Source of the DNA: a virus
UHGV virus genome: UHGV-0200725
Direction: 5' to 3' (one strand)
DNA length: 39,875 nucleotides
Below, one piece after another: positions 5,972 through 34,923 of the stretch (its first letter is position 1; every line of letters starts with the position of its first letter). Below the pieces are notes generated by a model that was not told where the DNA came from, searched no databases, and saw only the letters and a program-made list of their open reading frames with translations. The translations under genes were made by a program, and so were the position numbers.

Positions 5972-6460
5972 TTATTTGATAAGAAGTGAAGGTTTCCCAA
6001 CTTTGAGTTGAGCGCCGGGGATATTTATTCCTGCTTTTAGTTGGTGTTTGATTGCCAGTTTGTCGGCTTTAATTGTCGTTTCAAACTCAACGTATTCAGG
6101 AGGAAGGGCGCTTGAGTCGATGATTTCTACAGTTTCTGACGGTTTGCGGATTGTTACCTGGTGAATACCTGCTCGAATCTTTTTCTTGCCAACCATTTCA
6201 AGCGATGACGCTATATACGCCATAATGCTGTCAATCTTATTTTGAATTACTGCAGCTCGTTCATTCAGTGACTTTGCCTCTTCCTTGAGGCGTTCAGCAT
6301 AACCAGATTCATTTTTAATAATGGCAAGAAGTTGCTCTATTTTATCGGTAAATTCTCCTTCCATGCCTTCTATTGTGTCAGCAATCATCTCTGGCTCTAA
6401 ATCTGAATCCATCAATTTTGCGTATTCATTGGCAATTTCATATAGTTTGCTCACTGGCAA
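5972..6460 (-). CDS. Siphovirus Gp157-family protein
   Basis: 162-aa ORF immediately downstream of RecT, overlapping it by 23 nt; sequence character matches Gp157-like proteins (from memory). Confidence 0.55.
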   Translation of the reverse strand: MPVSKLYEIANEYAKLMDSDLEPEMIADTIEGMEGEFTDKIEQLLAIIKNESGYAERLKEEAKSLNERAAVIQNKIDSIMAYIASSLEMVGKKKIRAGIHQVTIRKPSETVEIIDSSALPPEYVEFETTIKADKLAIKHQLKAGINIPGAQLKVGKPSLLIK

Positions 6461-7891: not shown

Positions 7892-8010
7892 AACGCCTCC
7901 AGTTGTTTCTTTGCTGCTCTGATTAATTGTTTAACTCGGCGTGATAATTCAGATTCGTGCGGGTAGAAAGCGGACATGACGCCGCTACCCGCGAGCTGAA
8001 AGTGCATCAT
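7876..8010 (-). CDS. cIII: cIII-like small regulator (44 aa)
   Basis: ATG at 8010 preceded by AAGGAG (8017-8022); translation MMHFQLAGSGVMSAFYPHESELSRRVKQLIRAAKKQLEALCAMK follows the lambda cIII pattern; track ORF 7876..8115 is an over-extended version. Confidence 0.6.
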   Translation of the reverse strand: MMHFQLAGSGVMSAFYPHESELSRRVKQLIRAAKKQLEALCAMK

Positions 8011-8075
8011 GGGTAACTCCTTATATTTGATTGCATAACGAAAACGCCTCGAGTGAAGCGTTATTGGTATGCATA

Positions 8076-8100
8076 TAAAAAAGCCCTCACATAGGAGGGC
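8076..8100 (-). terminator. Rho-independent terminator inside the pL operon (tL-like, expected to be overridden by N)
   Basis: Minus strand reads GCCCTC-CTATGT-GAGGGC followed by TTTTTT. Confidence 0.55.
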
Positions 8101-8195
8101 AAAGAAGATTTCCAATAATCAGAACAAGTCGGCTCCTGTTTAGTTACGAGCGACATTGCTCCGTGTATTCACTCGTTGGAATGAATACACAGTGC

Positions 8196-8399
8196 TTATT
8201 CGCGAGCTTTGAGCATTGCGTCTGCAAACTTATATGCAGCGCTTGCTGCATAATTAACAGCTCCATCAGAATCATTATCGATAATCGATGGATTGCTAAT
8301 CATTGCTTGCATAGCCTTTGCCGCGAAGTAATCACGTAATGTCGCATCACTTGCCATTTCTGGGCGTTTGATATCTGCTTCATAAAACTCGCACATCAC
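8196..8399 (-). CDS. Hypothetical protein (about 66 aa)
   Basis: ORF in pL operon between the Ral-like and cIII-like genes; track start is GTG, ATG follows at 8396. Confidence 0.6.
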   Translation of the reverse strand: MMCEFYEADIKRPEMASDATLRDYFAAKAMQAMISNPSIIDNDSDGAVNYAASAAYKFADAMLKARE

Positions 8400-8530
8400 T
8401 CACCTCCAAGAGCATTTGCAGCCTCTTTTGCTTTGTGAATCCATAGCAGAGCCATGTAGTACACAGCCTTTTCGTCGGCTCCTGTGATATCTTGCTCTGC
8501 CATCCATTTTGTGAATTCAACTGCGTTCAT
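8396..8530 (-). CDS. Small hypothetical protein (44 aa), not in the supplied track
   Basis: ATG at 8530 preceded by AGAGGTG; translation MNAVEFTKWMAEQDITGADEKAVYYMALLWIHKAKEAANALGGE; stop overlaps next start. Confidence 0.35.
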   Translation of the reverse strand: MNAVEFTKWMAEQDITGADEKAVYYMALLWIHKAKEAANALGGE

Positions 8531-8569
8531 CTTCACCTCTATTGTTTACGCCAAAAATAAAGGCCACCA

Positions 8570-8770
8570 TCAGGCAGCCTTGTTGTTCTGTTTACCAAGT
8601 TCTCTGGCAATCATTGCCGTCGTTCGCATTGCCCATTTATCGACATATTTCCCATCTTCCATCACAGGAAACATTTCTTCAGGCTTAACCATGCATTCCG
8701 ATTGCAGCTTGCATCCATTGCATCGCTTGAATTGTCCACACCATTGATTCTTATCAATAGTCGTAGTCAT
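8570..8770 (-). CDS. ral: Ral-like restriction-alleviation protein
   Basis: 66-aa Cys-rich ORF (MTTTIDKNQWCGQFKRCNGCKLQSEC...) downstream of N in the pL operon, matching lambda Ral position and sequence as recalled. Confidence 0.6.
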   Translation of the reverse strand: MTTTIDKNQWCGQFKRCNGCKLQSECMVKPEEMFPVMEDGKYVDKWAMRTTAMIARELGKQNNKAA

Positions 8771-8848
8771 AAGGGTAGTCCTGGTATTGTTCCATCACAT
8801 CCTGAGGATGCTCTTCGAACTCTTCAAATTCTTCTTCCATATATCACC

Positions 8849-9148
8849 TCAAATAAGTGGTTTGCTGCCTAATTTCATTTTCTGGCGACCAACACAAGTC
8901 ACACCCATTTCACTGCGTGGCTTGCGGTAGTAAATACGATTCTGTTTACTCTCGACTTCTTCTGCCTTCTTGCAGCGAAGGCTTCCGAGTGATGCTGCTT
9001 TATCTGCTCTGACGCAACCAGAGAGCTTTAGCGCAATTTTTCGCGCCAGTCGCTGTTCTTGCATTGCCTGCTCACGTTGAGCCTGTCTGCGTGCTCTGCG
9101 GCGATTTCTGGCGTTATCGTCAGCCAGATATGTAATGACGACTGTCAT
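8849..9148 (-). CDS. N: N-type transcription antiterminator
   Basis: 99-aa ORF with N-terminal arginine-rich motif (NARNRRRARRQAQ) and C-terminal YYRKPRSEMGVTCVGRQKMKLGSKPLI resembling lambda N C-terminus; preceded by GGAGGT. Confidence 0.8.
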   Translation of the reverse strand: MTVVITYLADDNARNRRRARRQAQREQAMQEQRLARKIALKLSGCVRADKAASLGSLRCKKAEEVESKQNRIYYRKPRSEMGVTCVGRQKMKLGSKPLI

Positions 9149-9462
9149 GTTGACCTCCGATGAAACAACTTTGGAATTTTTTTTATTACAAAGTGGTTTC
9201 CTTCCCCGCCAATTAGACGGGGATGGAAGAGCATTTATGAGCCTTCATGGACTCTGCTCGATCAGTTCTATTTAATTAATCTCTCAACTGAATGTAAGTA
9301 TTCACATAAATCCTCCTACCTCTTGTGCAGCTTTCTTGAATATGGTGGCGGCTGCATAACGCCTATGGAATTGACTTTGGCGGTGACGCGCCGGGTGCTT
9401 ATCTTCCGGTTGCCGTCGTGCAGCTGCACTTCACGTCACCCCAAAGCCAACTACTCTTTGGT

Positions 9463-9504
9463 TCCCGCATTTCGGCGGGACAATCCCATCAATGTTAAAG
9501 AGCC
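9463..9504 (-). promoter_or_regulatory. nutL (boxA and boxB)
   Basis: Minus strand: boxA GGCTCTTTAACAT (9504-9492), then boxB hairpin TCCCGC-CGAAAT-GCGGGA (9480-9463), identical to the boxB downstream of cro. Confidence 0.6.
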
Positions 9505-9548
9505 TGCCAATCTGTTCCGTTTGGCTTCCAGCGTCCTGCTGATGGCTT

Positions 9549-9640
9549 AAATTTAAGATCTCTTTAATTAATGGTCAAGAGTATTTTTGAAGAAAACTTA
9601 AATTTTCTTTCGTAACTTAAGTTTGGCTTTGATTTTTAAA
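9549..9640 (-). promoter_or_regulatory. pL promoter with OL operators
   Basis: Minus strand -35 TTGACC (9577-9572), 17-nt spacer, -10 TAAATT (9554-9549); overlapping operator-like palindromes ATTTAAGATCTCTTTAAT (9551-9568) and TTGAAGAAAACTTAAAT (9587-9603). Confidence 0.55.
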
Positions 9641-9644
9641 GGAA

Positions 9645-9669
9645 ATAAAAAAAAGGGGCGAATGCCCCC
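9645..9669 (-). terminator. Rho-independent terminator immediately after c2
   Basis: Minus strand reads GGGGGCATTCGCCCC followed by a 9-T run; starts right after the c2 stop at 9670-9672. Confidence 0.65.
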
Positions 9670-10320
9670 TTATGGAAGGTTTGCTAGTTTTGCATCGACA
9701 ACTACGCCGATGATTTTGCAGTTTCCGTTGATCTCGATCATCGGATATTGTGGGTTAAGTGGTTTTAGAAACTTCCTGCCTGCATCAATAACTAACTTCT
9801 TGAAAGTTGCCTCGTTTTCTCCTTCGAGCTTTGCAACTACCAGTTTCCCGTTACGCGGCTCTACTTCAGGATCGACGAGTATTATCATTCCTTCAGGGAT
9901 ACTGAGACCGGCCGGAGCCGTCATTGAGTCTCCCTTCACGTCCAACCAAAACGAATCTTCTGAACAGTCTACGGTTGTATCGTACCAGTTATCTATTGCA
10001 CGCTTATGATATGGTTCTACAGCTTCCATCCAGCATCCTGCGCTCACCCAGCTAATCAGAGGGAATGACCCTCTTGGATCATGCCTACTGTGATAGGCAA
10101 TGTTTGAAAGACTTTCCTCTCCTTTCATCAGATAGTCAGGGGAACACTTCAACGCATTAGCCAGGGCGAGAAGATTCTCTCCATTTGGCTCTGTCTCAGA
10201 GCGTTCCCACTGAGATATGGCAACATTAGACACGCCGACCATCTTTCCAAGTGCGGCCTGCCTGATCTTGAGTTCTTTTCTCCGAGCGCGAATGCGCTCT
10301 CCCATCAATTGAGTTTTCAT
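9670..10320 (-). CDS. c2: CI-type repressor (P22 C2-like), HTH plus S24 LexA-like autocleavage domain
   Basis: 216-aa ORF; N-terminal HTH (QAALGKMVGVSNVAISQWERSE), C-terminal Ser/Lys autoprotease region (GDSMTAPAGLSIPEGMIILVD...KLVVAKL); matches P22 C2 as recalled. Confidence 0.9.
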   Translation of the reverse strand: MKTQLMGERIRARRKELKIRQAALGKMVGVSNVAISQWERSETEPNGENLLALANALKCSPDYLMKGEESLSNIAYHSRHDPRGSFPLISWVSAGCWMEAVEPYHKRAIDNWYDTTVDCSEDSFWLDVKGDSMTAPAGLSIPEGMIILVDPEVEPRNGKLVVAKLEGENEATFKKLVIDAGRKFLKPLNPQYPMIEINGNCKIIGVVVDAKLANLP

Positions 10321-10400
10321 AGTTAAGACATCTTAAATAAACTTGACTTAAGATTCCTTTAGTGGATAATTTAAGTGTTCTTTAATTTCGGAGCGAGTCT
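10321..10400. promoter_or_regulatory. OR operator region with divergent pRM/pR
   Basis: Three operator-like sites (AGTTAAGACATCTTAAAT, ACTTAAGATTCCTTTAGT, ATTTAAGTGTTCTTTAAT) between c2 and cro starts; pR -35 TTGACT at 10344-10349. Confidence 0.7.
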
Positions 10401-10586
10401 ATGTACAAGAAAGATGTTATCGACCACTTCGGAACCCAGCGTGCTGTAGCTAAAGCGTTAGGCATTAGCGACGCAGCAGTCTCTCAGTGGAAGGAAGTCA
10501 TCCCAGAGAAAGACGCCTATCGACTGGAAGTCGTTACAGCTGGCGCCCTGAAGTATCAAGAAAGCGCTTACCGCAAAGCGGCATAA
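10401..10586 (+). CDS. cro: Cro-type repressor
   Basis: 61-aa HTH protein (GTQRAVAKALGISDAAVSQW) transcribed divergently from c2 across the operator region. Confidence 0.85.
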   Translation: MYKKDVIDHFGTQRAVAKALGISDAAVSQWKEVIPEKDAYRLEVVTAGALKYQESAYRKAA

Positions 10587-10592
10587 GCAAAT

Positions 10593-10637
10593 TGCTCTTT
10601 AACAGTCATGGTCCTCATTCCCGCCGAAATGCGGGAA
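10593..10637 (+). promoter_or_regulatory. nutR (boxA and boxB)
   Basis: boxA TGCTCTTTAACAG (10593-10605), boxB hairpin TTCCCGC-CGAAAT-GCGGGAA (10618-10637). Confidence 0.6.
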
Positions 10638-10694
10638 TACAACGCGCATAAGTTGATGCGCATAACTTCTTATTTGTTAAGGAAATACTTACAT

Positions 10695-10988
10695 ATGGTT
10701 CGTGCAAACAAACGCAACGAGGCTCTACGAATCGAGAGTGCGTTGCTTAACAAAATCGCAATGCTTGGAACTGAGAAGACAGCGGAAGCTGTGGGAGTTG
10801 ATAAGTCGCAGATCAGCAGGTGGAAGAGGGACTGGATTCCAAAGTTCTCAATGCTGCTTGCTGTTCTTGAATGGGGCGTCGTTGACGACGACATGGCTCG
10901 ATTGGCACGACAAGTTGCTTCGATTCTCACCAATAAAAAACGCCCGGCGGCAACCGAGCGTTCTGATCAAATACAAATGGAATTTTAA
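10695..10988 (+). CDS. c1: CII-type transcriptional activator (P22 C1-like)
   Basis: ATG at 10695 preceded by AAGGA; translation MVRANKRNEALRIESALLNKIAMLGTEKTAEAVGVDKSQISRWKRDW...; the track ORF from 10608 is an upstream over-extension. Confidence 0.8.
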   Translation: MVRANKRNEALRIESALLNKIAMLGTEKTAEAVGVDKSQISRWKRDWIPKFSMLLAVLEWGVVDDDMARLARQVASILTNKKRPAATERSDQIQMEF

Positions 10989-11010
10989 CAACATCCAACG
11001 AGGTAATTAT

Positions 11011-33085: not shown

Positions 33086-34923
33086 TGAAAGTAACTGCAA
33101 ACGGTAAGACATTTACCTTTCCTGATGGTACGAGCACCGAAGATATTGGCACCGCCATTGATGAGTATTTTGCTGGTCAGGCTGTTCAGCAACAAATAGT
33201 TAATCAGGCCAATAATGCACCAACACGGGAAGAACCATCATTGATGCAACAAGCTGGCGATTGGCTCACTGGTGGTCAAAGTGCAGGGCAAATTGCAGAA
33301 CAGGCTGGTCGTGGTCTGGTAAACATACCATTTGACGTATTGCAGGGCGGCGCAAGTCTGATTAATGCAATCAGTCAGGGGCTTGGTGGACCCAAGGTTT
33401 TGGATGATGTTTATCGTCCAGTAGACAGACCGACAGACCCCTACGCGCAAGCCGGTGAAACAATTGGTGGGTATTTAGTTCCAGGAGTTGGAACGGCAGG
33501 AAGCATGGCTATTGGATCACTGGCAGAGGCCGCAAATCAGAAAGGCGATTTCGCACAAAATGCAGCTAAAAATGCCGGAGTTAACCTTGCCACTCAGGGT
33601 GTTCTTTCCGCAGCAGCAAAGGGAATAGGGCGTGGAATAACGGCTATAAAAGGTGATATTGCGCCAGAAGTGGCGAAGAAAATTGCCACATCAGAATCGA
33701 TGGGCGTGACACCAATGACATCTGATGTTATCCCGCCGAAAAATGCTTTCACTCGCGGCCTAACTCAGGATGCCGAGGGGGCTTTGCTCGGGACAGGCTC
33801 AAAGCGAGCGGAGCAATATGCAACGCGTAGTAAGCTGGTAAGTAATTATTTTGACCGTTTTGGTGAGTACAACCCTGATGATGTGGTGAAATCTCTTACC
33901 ACCACGTTAAGGGGGCGGAAGGATGCCGCTGGCGCTGTTATCAATGACGTCACCAATAAAATGGGTAATGCCGCAGTTGATACCACAAATACCATGAATG
34001 CTCTGAATACAGCGATCGCAAGACAGGAACGGCTTGGGACGTCTGCCAATCAAAGCCTGCTTACATCCTTGCGTAACCTACGTGAAGAATTAGCAAACCC
34101 TGCAACTGATTTGGATGTTACGTTTGATCTCTTGCGTCAGCACAGAACAGCATTTAGATCTAATGTTCAGGGAGATGCTATGGTCTTCCCCAACCAGGCA
34201 AAAGCAGCTACCAATATGGTAGAGAATGCAATGTCAAAAGACCTTCGTAACGCAGTTGCTAAAAACCTCGGTGCATCAGACGCAGCAAAATACCTTAAAG
34301 CAAATTCCGATTATGCAAACGTTTATAATAAGGTGCTTAATAAAAACATTGCTAACAAGCTCAACAAGGCAAGCAGTGAAGCCAGTCCTGAACTTATAAA
34401 TACCGTTGTATTAAGCAGAAAACCATCTGACGTGAAACGAATATGGAGCGCCCTGGATGATAAAGGGAAAGATGCTATGCGTGCAGCTTACGTCAGCAAA
34501 ATAGCGGAAAAGGCCGGTGACTCTCCAGCCAAGTTCATCACTGAAGTTAATAAGCTGAAATCTCAGTCAGGCGGTGAAATTTACAACACTATTTTTTCTG
34601 GAAAGCACATGAAAGAGCTTGATGCTCTTCATGAAGTTCTACAGCAAACAGCAAGGTCAGACACCGCAAATGTAGTAACTCAGACGGGGCAATCACAAGC
34701 CAACAGGATAAGGACGATTGGCGCAACTGCGACTCTTGGTGTATCAATGGGGCTTGAGGCTGGCTTTGGTGCAATGATGCGTTTGTATGAGTCCAAAGCA
34801 GCAAGGAATGCTCTCTTACGTCTGGCAAACACTAAAGCTGGAACGCCAGCCTATGAAAGAGCGTTGAGTAACGCTGCAAATGCCATCAGGCCGCTGCTTG
34901 CTACTGAGGCAACACAGCAGTAA
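33082..34923 (+). CDS. 16: Ejection protein (P22 gp16-type)
   Basis: 613-aa ORF, last of the ejection-protein trio. Confidence 0.8.

Follow-up and report, generated by a model that had tools for sequence, protein, structure and literature searches.

N is the first gene expressed from pL and gates all delayed-early transcription, and in lambda its level is set post-transcriptionally through the leader, including by RNase III cleavage. The hairpin of the lambda N leader is reportedly the RNase III site controlling N translation; to our knowledge, RNase III cleavage of this large stem is known only for lambda. The level of lambda N is also under nutL-dependent self-repression: together with Nus factors, N bound at nutL represses its own translation, and a highly structured leader lies in between (PMC5725501). 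Here we analysed the equivalent leader in a 39.9-kb phage sequence (UHGV-0200725; the whole stretch is hereafter the window) that is ~99% identical to phage CUS-3. This leader is composite, consisting of a standard nutL-to-N leader of ~105 nt and an optional cassette of ~205 nt; as an optional structured RNA element, the cassette is previously undescribed.

The pL leader and its large stem-loop

Gene order at the locus is cI - pL - nutL - N, and the leader features located below are on the minus strand. The pL promoter (9550-9578; -35 TTGACC at 9573-9578, a 17-nt spacer and -10 TAAATT at 9550-9555) is the sole promoter-like site within 8800-9750 and lines up with the pL annotated in HK620 and in phage 21. 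The 5' end of its transcript (9503-9545; CCATCAGCAGGACGCTGG...GATTGGCAGG) is near-identical across CUS-3, HK140, HK620, N7, phage 21, 611R6 and mEp235, and CATCAGCAGGACGC within it is common to lambda. Promoter-proximal and 5' of N lies nutL (9461-9503), where a consensus boxA (GCTCTTTAACA, 9493-9503) is followed by the short boxB hairpin (GTCCCGCCGAAATGCGGGAAC, 9461-9481; -10.5 kcal/mol, z = -3.8), in alignment with the annotated nutL of HK620 and boxA of HK140. The N gene and its ribosome-binding site (RBS) occupy 8849-9158 (SD GGAGG 9154-9158, ATG at 9148, CDS 8849-9148), and the 99-aa product matches PHROG 271, 'anti-termination protein N-like' (E = 1e-36), and weakly PF25694.

A sequence-only reading of this DNA had drawn attention to a long, structured interval of about 310 nt between nutL and N that lacked a convincing ORF on the transcribed strand. 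Measured on the minus strand from the end of boxB to the ATG, the interval is 312 nt. Shuffled versions of the entire 436-nt leader fold at -111.5 +/- 5.2 kcal/mol and the leader itself at -140.6 kcal/mol (z = -5.63), and its structure is kept in relatives. On the transcribed strand the interval holds only short ORFs, of 37 aa (GTG start, 9316-9429) and 29 aa (9145-9234), which drift in frame and length among relatives. Both outcomes that the reading had named as counting against it, a conserved ORF and a lack of structural conservation, were looked for and neither was found.

The nested palindrome which had been noticed at about 9382-9440 (GGTGACGCGCC...CACGTCACC) is indeed present, as part of a longer helix with arms at 9372-9390 and 9432-9449. 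The outer helix of the resulting 78-nt stem-loop (9372-9449) has 18 bp and a single bulged G (UGGCUUUGGGGUGACGUG / CGCGUCACC-G-CCAAAGUCA), and the stem-loop has a folding energy of -37.6 kcal/mol (z = -4.05), equalled in none of 200 shuffles. Its base is common to lambda (GGCUUUGGGG / CC-N-CCAAAG or, in a longer form, GGCUUUGGGGUG... / ...CACC-N-CCAAAG), and an outer helix of 16-21 bp with one bulge also occurs in lambda, HK620, 611R6 and seven IMG/VR leaders. The upper helix differs yet stays complementary in each of 11 leaders, a covariation that includes the pairs GUGACGUG/CGCGUCAC, GUGUGUG/CACACAC, AUUGGAUG/CAUCCAAU, AUGCGGUG/CACCGCAU and GUGUGGCAGGUU/GACCUGCACAC, among others. Judged by sequence and predicted structure, the large stem is thus a homologue of the lambda N-leader hairpin, an element type that is already known: the two agree in their position after nutL, base sequence, single bulged base, long imperfect helix and variable interior, and differ slightly in the outer helix, which has 16 bp and one bulge in lambda as opposed to 18 bp and one bulge here. 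Because of this homology, the suggestion that the leader contains an RNase III processing or translational control element is reasonable for the upstream palindrome.

What sets the present leader apart is the distance from this helix to N. In all 97 cassette-less leaders sampled, only a few bases separate the 3' arm of the stem from the SD and ATG of the N-like gene downstream, and the same proximity is seen in lambda, HK620 and phage 21, whereas here a 207-nt cassette of extra structured RNA intervenes. With a leader of 397 nt rather than 190 nt, nutL and the hairpin therefore lie about twice as far from the N RBS.

The leaders of relatives carry inserts of ~90 nt and more, a tRNA-like piece, and a (CACGT)n expansion within the large stem. 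In every leader examined a single bulged base and the triplet CCA come directly after the upper helix, and the helix of one relative, L171, has a tRNA-like acceptor and T-arm inside it. More speculatively, these sequence features suggest that the lambda-family N-leader hairpin may descend from a tRNA.

The accessory leader cassette and its conservation as RNA

The earlier reading had taken the leader as one element, which the comparison with HK620, N7, phage 21 and mEp235 contradicts: about 205 nt between the large stem and the N SD (9164-9370, boundaries ~+/-3 nt) are an insertion relative to these phages. The cassette is absent also from 611R6 and present in CUS-3 and HK140. It was found in 22 of 119 sampled pL leaders (about one in five) and in 159 of 5426 complete E. 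coli genomes (about 3%), its bearers including the prophages of UTI89, RS218/CUS-3 and ST95/APEC strains. A scan of species-representative genomes gave only 16 chance matches in unrelated bacteria, and a metagenome scan gave no new deep alleles. Some 80% of related phages do without the cassette, which is therefore dispensable.

Where present, the cassette behaves as a unit. Its 5' and 3' halves always occur together and never apart, its length is constant (223-229 nt, counted from 14 nt 5' of the first ATG in the cassette as far as the next gene's start codon), and 88 of the 89 copies collected directly precede N, the exception (L043) having an inserted 66-aa ORF between cassette and N. It accompanies N proteins and boxB sequences of three specificities, HK620-type, P22 gp24-type and 933W-type. 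Short direct repeats flank it, either CCAAAGT or, in P22-type contexts, the 14-bp CAAAGCCATTTCAC. A mobile element with many target sites was considered and rejected: the cassette occurs once per examined locus, and the 89 copies with a defined downstream start are all in a pL leader. The CUS-3 record covers the same cI-N spacer with the label bsq5, a 'boundary sequence' (33288-33789, from the cI stop to just before N), which denotes a mosaic junction and no function, and which merges pL, nutL, the hairpin and the cassette.

The cassette contains five local hairpins which are kept across alleles, with hypervariable linkers between them. H1 (9326-9356; UGCAGC...GCUGCA) has six pairs which are 100% paired and never vary, around a hypervariable 19-nt loop (-6.4 kcal/mol, z = -1.9). 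Downstream of a small hairpin at 9289-9304, the AU-rich single-stranded linker GAUUAAUUAAAU (9270-9281) is conserved in alleles A, B, C and E, is replaced by another AU-rich stretch in allele D, closes two of the reading frames with stop codons and may be an RNase E-type site. H3 (9229-9259; GAGCAGAGUC..GGCUC..UGCUC, z = -2.3) has three pairs that vary in a compensatory manner, with A-U in place of G-C in L063 and L107, and with GC/UG and CG/AU between alleles A and B. H4 (9198-9228; UUCC-A-UCCCCG ... CGGGGA-A-GGAA, -20.1 kcal/mol, z = -4.47) is the hairpin that the sequence-only reading had seen as TCCCCG...CGGGGA; its existence is borne out, its placement just upstream of the N RBS is not, as a further hairpin, H5, lies between. 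The closing pair of H4 changes from GC to UA between alleles, its outer extension is re-formed by a different sequence in allele B (UUUCUG/CAGAAA), and its A.A mismatch is shifted or repaired in two variants (L074, L033). H5 (9164-9198; AACCACUUUG..CAAAGUUGUU, -4.9 kcal/mol, z = -2.7), like H1 a weak helix, repeats the CCAAAG motif of the large stem in its 3' arm and ends 5 nt 5' of the N SD; a different, stronger hairpin (UGAAAUG/CAUUUCA) takes its place in P22-type contexts.

Several comparisons point to conservation at the RNA level on the sense strand. Between CUS-3 and HK140 the flanks are ~99% identical and the cassette 70.8%, and between alleles the predicted stems are 85-96% identical and the loops 41-77%. 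In our alignment of 39 distinct cassette sequences, 55 of 74 paired columns are invariant as against 42 of 136 unpaired ones (Fisher p = 1.6e-9), although the sequences were gathered by exact-match patterns, which inflates the invariance of the bait blocks. Pairing is retained in 99.3% of stem cells, with double changes at five pairs, in a structure derived from the same alignment that was used to test it and in which 25 of 37 pairs never vary and so carry no structural information. The covariation score (0.116, against no more than 0.047 in slid controls) draws on few independent lineages, about five alleles and their recombinants. Cassette folds of seven alleles give z-scores of -1.9 to -3.4. 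The helices contain 46 G.U cells and zero A.C cells, an asymmetry that indicates the pL-sense RNA as the structured strand.

This pattern bears on the idea that the cassette has no function of its own and remains from recombination, illegitimate or homologous, at a mosaic hot spot, being tolerated by a leader that accepts insertions. The region is demonstrably insertion-tolerant, the flanking direct repeats and the absence of the cassette from most related leaders fit such an origin, the authors of the CUS-3 record gave the entire cI-N spacer no annotation beyond boundary sequence, and the predicted accessibility of the N RBS is unchanged by the cassette. Yet neutral DNA would not be expected to show invariant islands of 6-18 bases between blocks of 41-54% identity within flanks of ~99%, nor stem-biased conservation, compensatory pairs and G.U-only asymmetry, nor a length and architecture held over five alleles and three N types. 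We therefore regard an inert remnant as unlikely.

The same G.U cells, which would be mismatches on the other strand, argue against the proposal that the conserved blocks act as DNA (as a protein-binding site or secondary operator) or that the opposite strand encodes a protein or an antisense RNA. It is true that PGAP calls an antisense CDS over the interval in UTI89 (a 129-aa 'hypothetical protein') and SH19PTE6, and that the TTAATTAA block is palindromic. The antisense ORF is nevertheless split into pieces of 46 and 75 aa in the window, is 28-63 aa long or absent in alleles B-E, is unannotated in the SF-468, AJ5 and M172-1 records, and crosses nutL and the large stem as well, both of which are RNA-constrained; nor was an antisense promoter seen in the cassette (three alleles). 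A role of this kind seems very improbable.

Small ORFs translated from the cassette might instead account for its function, the candidates being an MQPP leader peptide (AUG at 9355-9357), a 9-codon ORF adjoining the start-stop site described below, and an MLF(L/H)P ORF. Every allele keeps ATGCAGCCGCCA, which encodes MQPP and then P or N; when EF-P is lacking, ribosomes stall at the motifs PPP and PPN. Alleles B-E have the 9-codon ORF (MHNFKTEVN, MPTFNFEIN, MHNFKSEEK), which uses a second AUG and ends in the TTAATTAA block, and allele A, the allele of the window and the commonest in E. coli, has a 9-codon ORF in a GUG frame; AUGUG sites can initiate in two frames (PMC9841429). The stop TGA of the 29-aa MLF(L/H)P ORF of the window overlaps the N ATG (AUGA), so that translational coupling would be possible. 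Against this, every candidate changes length or frame or loses its start between alleles: the MQPP ORF has 13, 17, 37 or 52 codons with frames differing after codon 4, and its AUG is buried in the H1 stem, preceded by nothing stronger than a weak AGG; allele A has AUA in place of the second AUG; and the MLF ORF has 7, 10, 29 or more than 29 codons, its frame being shifted by the length of an A-run (7-9 A) even within allele A, so that the AUGA overlap is not conserved. Moreover, the conserved codons are stem nucleotides, and the compensatory changes keep pairing, not amino acids. No conserved ORF was found in the cassette on either strand among the alleles compared, and a small protein or leader peptide appears quite improbable to us. 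The CDS calls HK140_048, UTI89_RS28850 and the 611R6 'proline-rich cell wall protein' are almost certainly spurious.

Other candidate functions were compared with the cassette and set aside. The leader sense strand has no terminator-like site of the kind an attenuator would have, and no C-rich, rut-like region suggests Rho-dependent termination: the C/G ratio does not exceed 1.4 over any 78 nt, and C and G make up 19% and 21% of the cassette. A second nut site, made of a boxA-like GCUCUUU and H4, was rejected: alleles C and D have GUUCUUU together with a compensating H3 change on the opposite strand, so that pairing is what is kept, and the loops of H4, of 4-9 nt, share neither sequence nor length and are the same across different N types. 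The putL and putR elements of HK022 are likewise structured, protein-independent RNA elements in a pL leader, 5' of the gene at the N position. No sequence similarity to them was found, an nhmmer profile of the cassette giving nothing in the HK022 cI-nun region at E <= 10, and with a normal nutL and N present here a put-like function would be redundant.

A conserved start-stop site in the cassette

The most conserved feature of the cassette, overlooked in the earlier reading, is a strong, accessible SD followed by AUG-UGA. It lies in the 18-nt block AGGAGGAUUUAUGUGAAU (9300-9317; SD 9312-9317, AUG-UGA 9302-9307), the longest conserved stretch of the cassette, which is identical at 17-18 of 18 positions in every allele pair. 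The arrangement AGGAGG-AUUU-AUG-UGA (9302-9317) thus comprises an SD at working distance, an AUG and an immediate stop, and AGGAGG(A/G)UUUAUGUGAAU is kept in all alleles. The start-stop is kept in all 39 distinct cassettes, L107 having one A-to-G change in the spacer base beside the SD, and the block recurs in 19 metagenome cassettes and L107 that were retrieved by a pattern not requiring AUG-UGA. The UGA sits within the small hairpin UGAAU..AUUCA (9289-9304), and opening the site is predicted to cost 6.4 kcal/mol in allele A and 8.8 kcal/mol in allele B. Pairing of the start-stop SD with CAUAAAUGCUCUUCC at long range is possible in allele A and, on reading the sequences by eye, is not kept in allele B.

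Minimal ORFs of two kinds are the closest described counterparts. The lambda barI and barII minigenes, two-codon AUG-AUA-stop sequences in the pL operon far downstream of N, act via peptidyl-tRNA(Ile) drop-off in Pth-deficient hosts. The site described here resembles them as a tiny SD-led 'minigene' on a lambdoid pL transcript, but its AUG-UGA has a single codon, so that no peptidyl-tRNA is possible, and it lies 5' of N amid conserved hairpins; we therefore do not class it with bar. In E. coli, sites with an SD and a start-stop have been found to bind ribosomes and to modulate the associated gene slightly (Meydan et al. 2019, bioRxiv 10.1101/520783). Those start-stop ORFs share with ours an SD-like sequence, an AUG and an immediate stop, but they lie inside coding genes and out of frame, whereas the present site, in a 5' leader and ~155 nt 5' of the start that would be regulated, has an SD close to the consensus, and no other part of the portable cassette is as conserved.

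An 18-nt conserved single-stranded block could also be a seed, as would suit a precursor of a trans-acting RNA excised from the pL leader. Cuts by RNase III at the large stem and by RNase E in the AU-rich linker or near H5, for example, could release an RNA that targets host or phage mRNAs, or titrates ribosomes, Hfq or CsrA, rather than acting on N in cis. The cassette is indeed a discrete, portable, structured unit, independent of N specificity and flanked upstream by a strong processing-type helix, and regulatory RNAs borne by phages and prophages are common (PMC4104026; 10.64898/2026.05.13.724894). However, neither a promoter of its own nor a terminator or other mark of a stable 3' end is present in the cassette, H5 lacks the length and strength of a good RNase III substrate, the reverse complement of the block has no match in the window with up to three mismatches, and the copies almost invariably precede N directly. 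The conserved block is exactly an SD, an AUG and a stop, and is more simply read as a ribosome site. On balance a trans-acting product is improbable.

The related suggestion of a small RNA, in the sense of a separate gene, was not upheld. Only pL lies upstream, the interval has no sigma-70-like promoter or intrinsic terminator in the three alleles analysed, no hairpin with a U-tract was found in the cassette (alleles A, B and E), and there was no Rfam match: a search of 8000-11000 against Rfam release 15 at E <= 10 gave only chance-level matches to SraG and eukaryotic lncRNA models, and so no sign of AgvB-type or other known prophage sRNAs. The Pas prophage sRNA genes lie near Q and the late genes, outside the N leader. 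A study of UTI89 sRNAs reports nothing at the cassette locus (PMC4546395).

Possible consequences for N expression

Taking these observations together, we favour, with slightly better than even confidence, a reading in which the leader joins a lambda-type RNase III hairpin to a cis-acting, ribosome-engaging 5'-UTR module of the N mRNA. By homology with lambda, the large hairpin (9372-9449) is most likely an RNase III processing site, and a cut within it would disconnect the N RBS from the N/Nus complex at nutL and so set the amount of N. The cassette, which would be transcribed only within the pL leader, would after such cleavage form the 5' UTR of the mature N mRNA. A ribosome on the start-stop, together with the flanking hairpins, might then alter the stability or translation of this mRNA, or both, and with them the timing and level of N. 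It may also be that H5 recreates beside the N SD the helix-then-SD geometry that the large stem gives to cassette-less phages. The cassette probably tunes N expression; we infer the cleavage, the binding of ribosomes to the start-stop, and both the existence and the direction of an effect on N.

One observation weighs against this reading. The N initiation region is nearly identical with and without the cassette, CUS-3 and HK620 differing by one base just inside the CDS (GTC vs GTA), and its predicted opening energy is 7.3 and 6.8 kcal/mol with the cassette and 7.2 kcal/mol without, so that there is no obvious masking or unmasking of the N RBS, and riboswitch-like sequestration of the N SD was rejected on the same grounds. 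Known 5' stabilisers, such as the Bacillus cryIIIA STAB-SD and the 5'-terminal hairpins of ompA, similarly combine an SD-like site or hairpins in a 5' UTR with a position far from the real start. If RNase III leaves a 5'-monophosphate, the cassette could by analogy protect the mRNA from 5'-end-dependent decay; the likeness to STAB-SD is a pure analogy, as the decay machinery of E. coli differs from that of Bacillus.

Even if the cassette were inert, its delineation would be useful for the annotation of the CDSs called over it. If instead the start-stop works, it would provide bacteria with a clear-cut example of such a site functioning in a 5' UTR, and natural isogenic-like pairs exist in the leaders of HK620 and CUS-3, whose nutL and N initiation regions are nearly identical. 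More tentatively, and in our view doubtfully, the cassette may represent an unrecognised class of portable 5'-UTR regulator, in which a high-affinity start-stop 'ribosome trap' and five hairpins would set the level or timing of N. Such a regulator would be exchanged among lambdoid phages of unrelated N and nut specificity, and by setting N would also set the choice between lysis and lysogeny, whether by loading ribosomes, by controlling the access of RNases or by spacing the nutL-bound complex from the N RBS. The cassette doubles the length of the leader and puts a conserved strong ribosome site ahead of N; if it does control N, it would add a new control point to a textbook circuit by way of an optional, exchangeable RNA.

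Layout of the pL leader

Over 521 bases, this locus and its surroundings match Enterobacteria phage CUS-3 at 99% identity; CUS-3 is a P22-like prophage carried by E. coli K1 strain RS218, and its record labels the cI-N interval solely as 'bsq5; boundary sequence'. All elements lie on the minus strand. A C2/cI-type repressor gene (9670-10320) is directly followed by a strong intrinsic terminator (AAGGGGGCATTCGCCCCTTTTTTTT, 9651-9671), the counterpart of HK620 tIMM just upstream of the OL/pL region. The sole promoter-like site in the region is pL (-35 TTGACC at 9573-9578, -10 TAAATT at 9550-9555); then come a conserved 5' transcript segment (9503-9545), nutL, with boxA (GCTCTTTAACA, 9493-9503) and the boxB hairpin (9461-9481), the N Shine-Dalgarno (SD) sequence GGAGG (9154-9158) and the 99-aa N gene (ATG at 9148; PHROG 271 'anti-termination protein N-like', E = 1e-36). 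Phages differing in repressor, operator and N type share a near-invariant start to the pL transcript, ~43 nt long (CCATCAGCAGGACGCTGGAAGCCAAACGGAACAGATTGGCAGG), and lambda has CATCAGCAGGACGC in common with them; we cannot attribute conservation this strong to boxA alone.

The sequence-only reading had described about 310 nt of highly structured leader between nutL and N, and the observation itself was confirmed: boxB and the N ATG are 312 nt apart, the complete leader folds with z = -5.63, and the palindrome at about 9382-9440 belongs to a 78-nt stem-loop at 9372-9449 (-37.6 kcal/mol, z = -4.05 against dinucleotide shuffles). The TCCCCG/CGGGGA hairpin is also present (9198-9228, -20.1 kcal/mol, z = -4.47), but it does not lie just upstream of the N ribosome-binding site, as another hairpin (9164-9198) intervenes. 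Palindrome and hairpin, which correspond to repeats I6, I9 and I13, both fold far better than dinucleotide shuffles.

When the pL-to-N intervals of CUS-3, HK140, HK620, N7, phage 21, mEp235 and vB_EcoP-611R6 were aligned, the 5' segment, nutL and a stem-loop proved common to all seven phages. The stem-loop directly joins the N SD in HK620, N7, phage 21, 611R6 and mEp235 (...CCAAAGTCAA meeting TCATCGGAGGTCAACATG); CUS-3 and HK140 carry ~205 additional bases, here called the cassette, at exactly this junction (about 9164-9370 in the window). The leader, counted from CCATCAGC... at its conserved 5' end, measures 397 nt in CUS-3 versus 190 nt in HK620.

The stem-loop shared with lambda

Lambda has GGCUUUGGGGUGUGUG...CACACACC-A-CCAAAGCU, with the N start AGGAGAAUCCAGAUG a few bases on, and the window counterpart is UGGCUUUGGGGUGACGUG...CGCGUCACC-G-CCAAAGUCA. 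Each of the eleven leaders that we folded (CUS-3, lambda, HK620, 611R6 and seven IMG/VR contigs of different N types) formed an outer helix with one bulged base, 16-21 bp long. The lower half of this helix is conserved in sequence, and the upper half varies yet stays complementary (GUGACGUG/CGCGUCAC, GUGUGUG/CACACAC, AUUGGAUG/CAUCCAAU, GUGUGUCU/GGGCACAC, GUGUGGCAGGUU/GACCUGCACAC, AUGCGGUG/CACCGCAU and GUGUGGUG/CACCACAC); the interior is hypervariable, and whole stem-loops span 80-167 nt. Because the lower half is shared and the upper helix complementary across these leaders, the stem-loop is the homologue of the large lambda N-leader hairpin. Wilson et al., in 1997 and 2002, reportedly found that RNase III cuts the lambda hairpin, lifting the translational repression that N/Nus exerts from nutL. 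By homology, we infer that RNase III would cleave the big stem in this phage. N/Nus repression of N translation and the highly structured intervening leader have been described (PMC5725501).

The interior of the stem-loop varies in several ways. In 611R6 (L006:1281-1421) and two loci of the same type (L010, L011), an extra ~90-nt insert lies inside the loop and the upper helix forms anew from AUUGGAUG/CAUCCAAU; the 'repetitive proline-rich cell wall protein 2' of the 611R6 record over this insert is almost certainly spurious. The 3' arm of IMG/VR contig L225 holds ~13 tandem copies of CACGT (CGTCACGTCACGT...), reflecting either slippage during replication of this stem or misassembly. The interior in contig L171 (691-760) is a tRNA-like element, called tRNA-Leu(tag) by ARAGORN and matched weakly by the Rfam tRNA clan (16.7 bits, acceptor and T-arm aligned), and L107 retains a T-arm-like GCTGGTTCGACTCCAG at ~6075-6110. 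Every leader examined, lambda and the window included, runs from upper helix through one bulged base to CCA (CGUCACC-G-CCA-AAG; cf. 9372-9390). As this arrangement resembles an acceptor stem, discriminator and CCA, the lambda-family hairpin might have descended from a tRNA; a complete ARAGORN call was obtained in only 1 of 178 leaders.

The cassette as a conserved RNA

A pattern-free blastn search with the 213-nt insert located the cassette in 159 of 5426 complete E. coli genomes, always chromosomal and in identity classes of at least 95%, about 78% and about 71%; the nutL-plus-stem portion of the leader occurred in 1029 of these genomes. The only carriers among 50,697 phage records are CUS-3 and HK140, and exact-pattern scans of IMG/VR and metagenomes yielded 89 copies (39 distinct sequences). 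Among the matches listed, pL leaders picked by a motif outside the cassette contained it in 22 of 119 cases and lacked it in 97, each of which had SD and ATG within a few bases after the big stem's 3' arm. Scanning with a motif from the 3' half gave zero loci beyond those from 5'-half motifs, so the cassette is never split; its length is constant, with 223-229 nt separating a point 14 nt before the first cassette ATG from the start codon downstream. It precedes HK620/CUS-3-type N (boxB GUCCCGCCGAAAUGCGGGAAC), P22 gp24-type N (boxB GCGCUGACAAAGCGC) and 933W-type N (boxB GCGGCUGAAAAGCCG), and is therefore independent of N specificity. A 66-aa ORF (MSSRISNEQKDRLCRLLSEFG...) in IMG/VR contig L043 sits between cassette and N in the SD context normally used by N, which follows with a new SD, so that the cassette there precedes a different first gene.

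CUS-3 and HK140 agree at ~99% of positions flanking the cassette on either side, versus 70.8% within it, the divergence being clustered in blocks. Five main alleles can be told apart (A, in the window; B, HK140; C, L063; D, L107; E, P22-type), along with A/B recombinants. We assign only a small chance to the cassette being a functionless recombination remnant, given how the RNA is conserved. RNAalifold on the 39 distinct sequences predicted five local hairpins (H1, H2b, H3, H4 and H5), with standard pairs in 99.3% of sequence-by-pair cells and both-side changes at five pairs. The covariation score, for a structure derived from the same alignment and resting on about five independent lineages with 25 of 37 pairs invariable, was 0.116, versus at most 0.047 with partners slid by 1-3 columns, and 0 of 500 column shuffles reached it. 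Among the compensated changes, L063 and L107 turn GAGCAUC/GAUGCUC into GAACAUC/GAUGUUC, and between A and B the H3 inner helix (GAGUC/GGCUC versus CGACC/GGU-G), the H4 closing pair (U-A versus G-C) and the H4 outer extension (UUCC/GGAA versus UUUCU/AGAAA) all differ. Invariant columns made up 55 of 74 paired versus 42 of 136 unpaired positions (Fisher p = 1.6e-9), with bait patterns imposing invariance at some columns and each bait block also invariant in sequences recovered by other baits. Pairwise identity was 85-96% in stems and 41-77% in loops, and alleles fold modestly better than shuffles (z = -1.9 to -3.4). Copies of allele A that are nearly identical elsewhere differ in the run of 7, 8 or 9 A within the loop of H5 (9164-9198), which shifts the frame of the 29-aa ORF overlapping the N start in the window.

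Helix cells contained 46 G.U and zero A.C, so the folding RNA is the pL-sense strand. A function at the DNA level or in antisense is highly improbable; an antisense 129-aa PGAP hypothetical protein in UTI89 is split here into 46 and 75 aa and is short or absent in other alleles. Databases place antisense CDSs of 129 and 138 aa (L008:1023-1412, UTI89_RS28850; L012:1023-1439) and a sense CDS of 41 aa (L002:1622-1747, HK140_048) over nutL, hairpin and cassette; being unconserved between alleles and interrupted in the window, they are likely annotation artefacts.

The sequence-only reading saw no convincing ORF on the transcribed strand, which agrees with the mere 37 aa (GTG start) and 29 aa present. 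Control through a small ORF is quite unlikely: candidates exist, yet no conserved coding capacity was found among the alleles on either strand. An MQPP... ORF, starting at the conserved ATGCAGCCGCCA with its AUG inside stem H1, has 13, 17, 37 or 52 codons in differing frames; a 9-codon ORF in alleles B-E loses its AUG to AUA in allele A (window); and an MLF(L/H)P... ORF has 7, 10, 29 or more codons. The TGA of the last (29 aa) overlaps the N ATG in the window, an overlap gone in A-allele variants with an A-run one base shorter.

The longest conserved stretch, AGGAGGAUUUAUGUGAAU (9300-9317), comprises a near-consensus SD, four bases, AUG and UGA; the second AUG of the 9-codon ORF comes right after this UGA. 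Alleles A, B, C and E do not differ in this start-stop block, and D has one A-to-G in the spacer base adjoining the SD. The block is present in 19 metagenome cassette sequences and L107, for which the retrieval pattern was the upstream hairpin plus GGAGG only, and its UGA sits within UGAA(U)/(A)UUCA, a hairpin that is small and conserved. In E. coli, start-stop sites led by an SD bind ribosomes with a modest effect on expression (10.1101/520783), and initiation at AUGUG sites can occur in two frames (PMC9841429). From its sequence, the cassette start-stop is predicted to bind ribosomes.

How the cassette may act

We consider it slightly better than even that the cassette is a cis-acting RNA module of the N leader. 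Several other roles were examined. Alleles A, B and E contain no sigma-70-like promoter and no hairpin with U-tract, and the cassette has no rut-type C-rich, G-poor tract (C/G at most 1.4). A second nut site was rejected: the boxA-like GCUCUUU before H4 reads GUUCUUU in C and D, a difference compensated on the opposite strand of H3, and different alleles have unrelated H4 loops. Nor does it simply mask the N ribosome-binding site, as opening the initiation region costs 7.3 (CUS-3) and 6.8 (HK140) versus 7.2 kcal/mol in HK620, without the cassette. A processed trans-acting RNA is unlikely. The cassette matches no Rfam family and shows no similarity to the HK022 putL leader, and the reverse complement of the start-stop block found no target within the phage window.

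For the favoured cis-acting module, one leader RNA is made from pL, and by homology with lambda the big stem would serve as a processing and regulatory hairpin. The RNA 3' of this stem starts with the cassette, which would be the part left on N after any cleavage, giving mature N mRNA a structured 5' UTR of ~215 nt instead of about 20 nt. The conserved, accessible SD-AUG-UGA is best explained as a ribosome-binding site without a product. A ribosome held there, together with H1-H5, could protect the message from RNase E or expose it, in view of a conserved linker at 9270-9281 that is AU-rich and single-stranded; it could also compete with or feed N initiation. It could likewise alter repression of the N ribosome-binding site by the nutL-tethered N/Nus complex, as repression through boxA is sensitive to distance and compaction (PMC5725501). 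H5 ends in CCAAAG(U), the motif ending the big stem (duplicated as a perfect 14-mer, CAAAGCCATTTCAC, in P22-type phages), and thus the cassette restores the helix-then-SD arrangement beside N. Any single one of these sub-mechanisms is well under half as probable as the module itself.

The earlier suggestion of RNase III processing, translational control or a small RNA is partly supported. Neither the nutL site nor the big hairpin departs from what is known of its kind. To the best of our knowledge, the cassette is undescribed; it would be a variant of post-transcriptional control through the N leader and not a categorically new system. We found no mention of it in the literature searched, and questionable CDSs are annotated over it in HK140 and several RefSeq records. 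A lambda specialist would be mildly surprised by a conserved, exchangeable start-stop cassette in a fifth of related phages, and natural isogenic-like phage pairs should make any effect easy to test.
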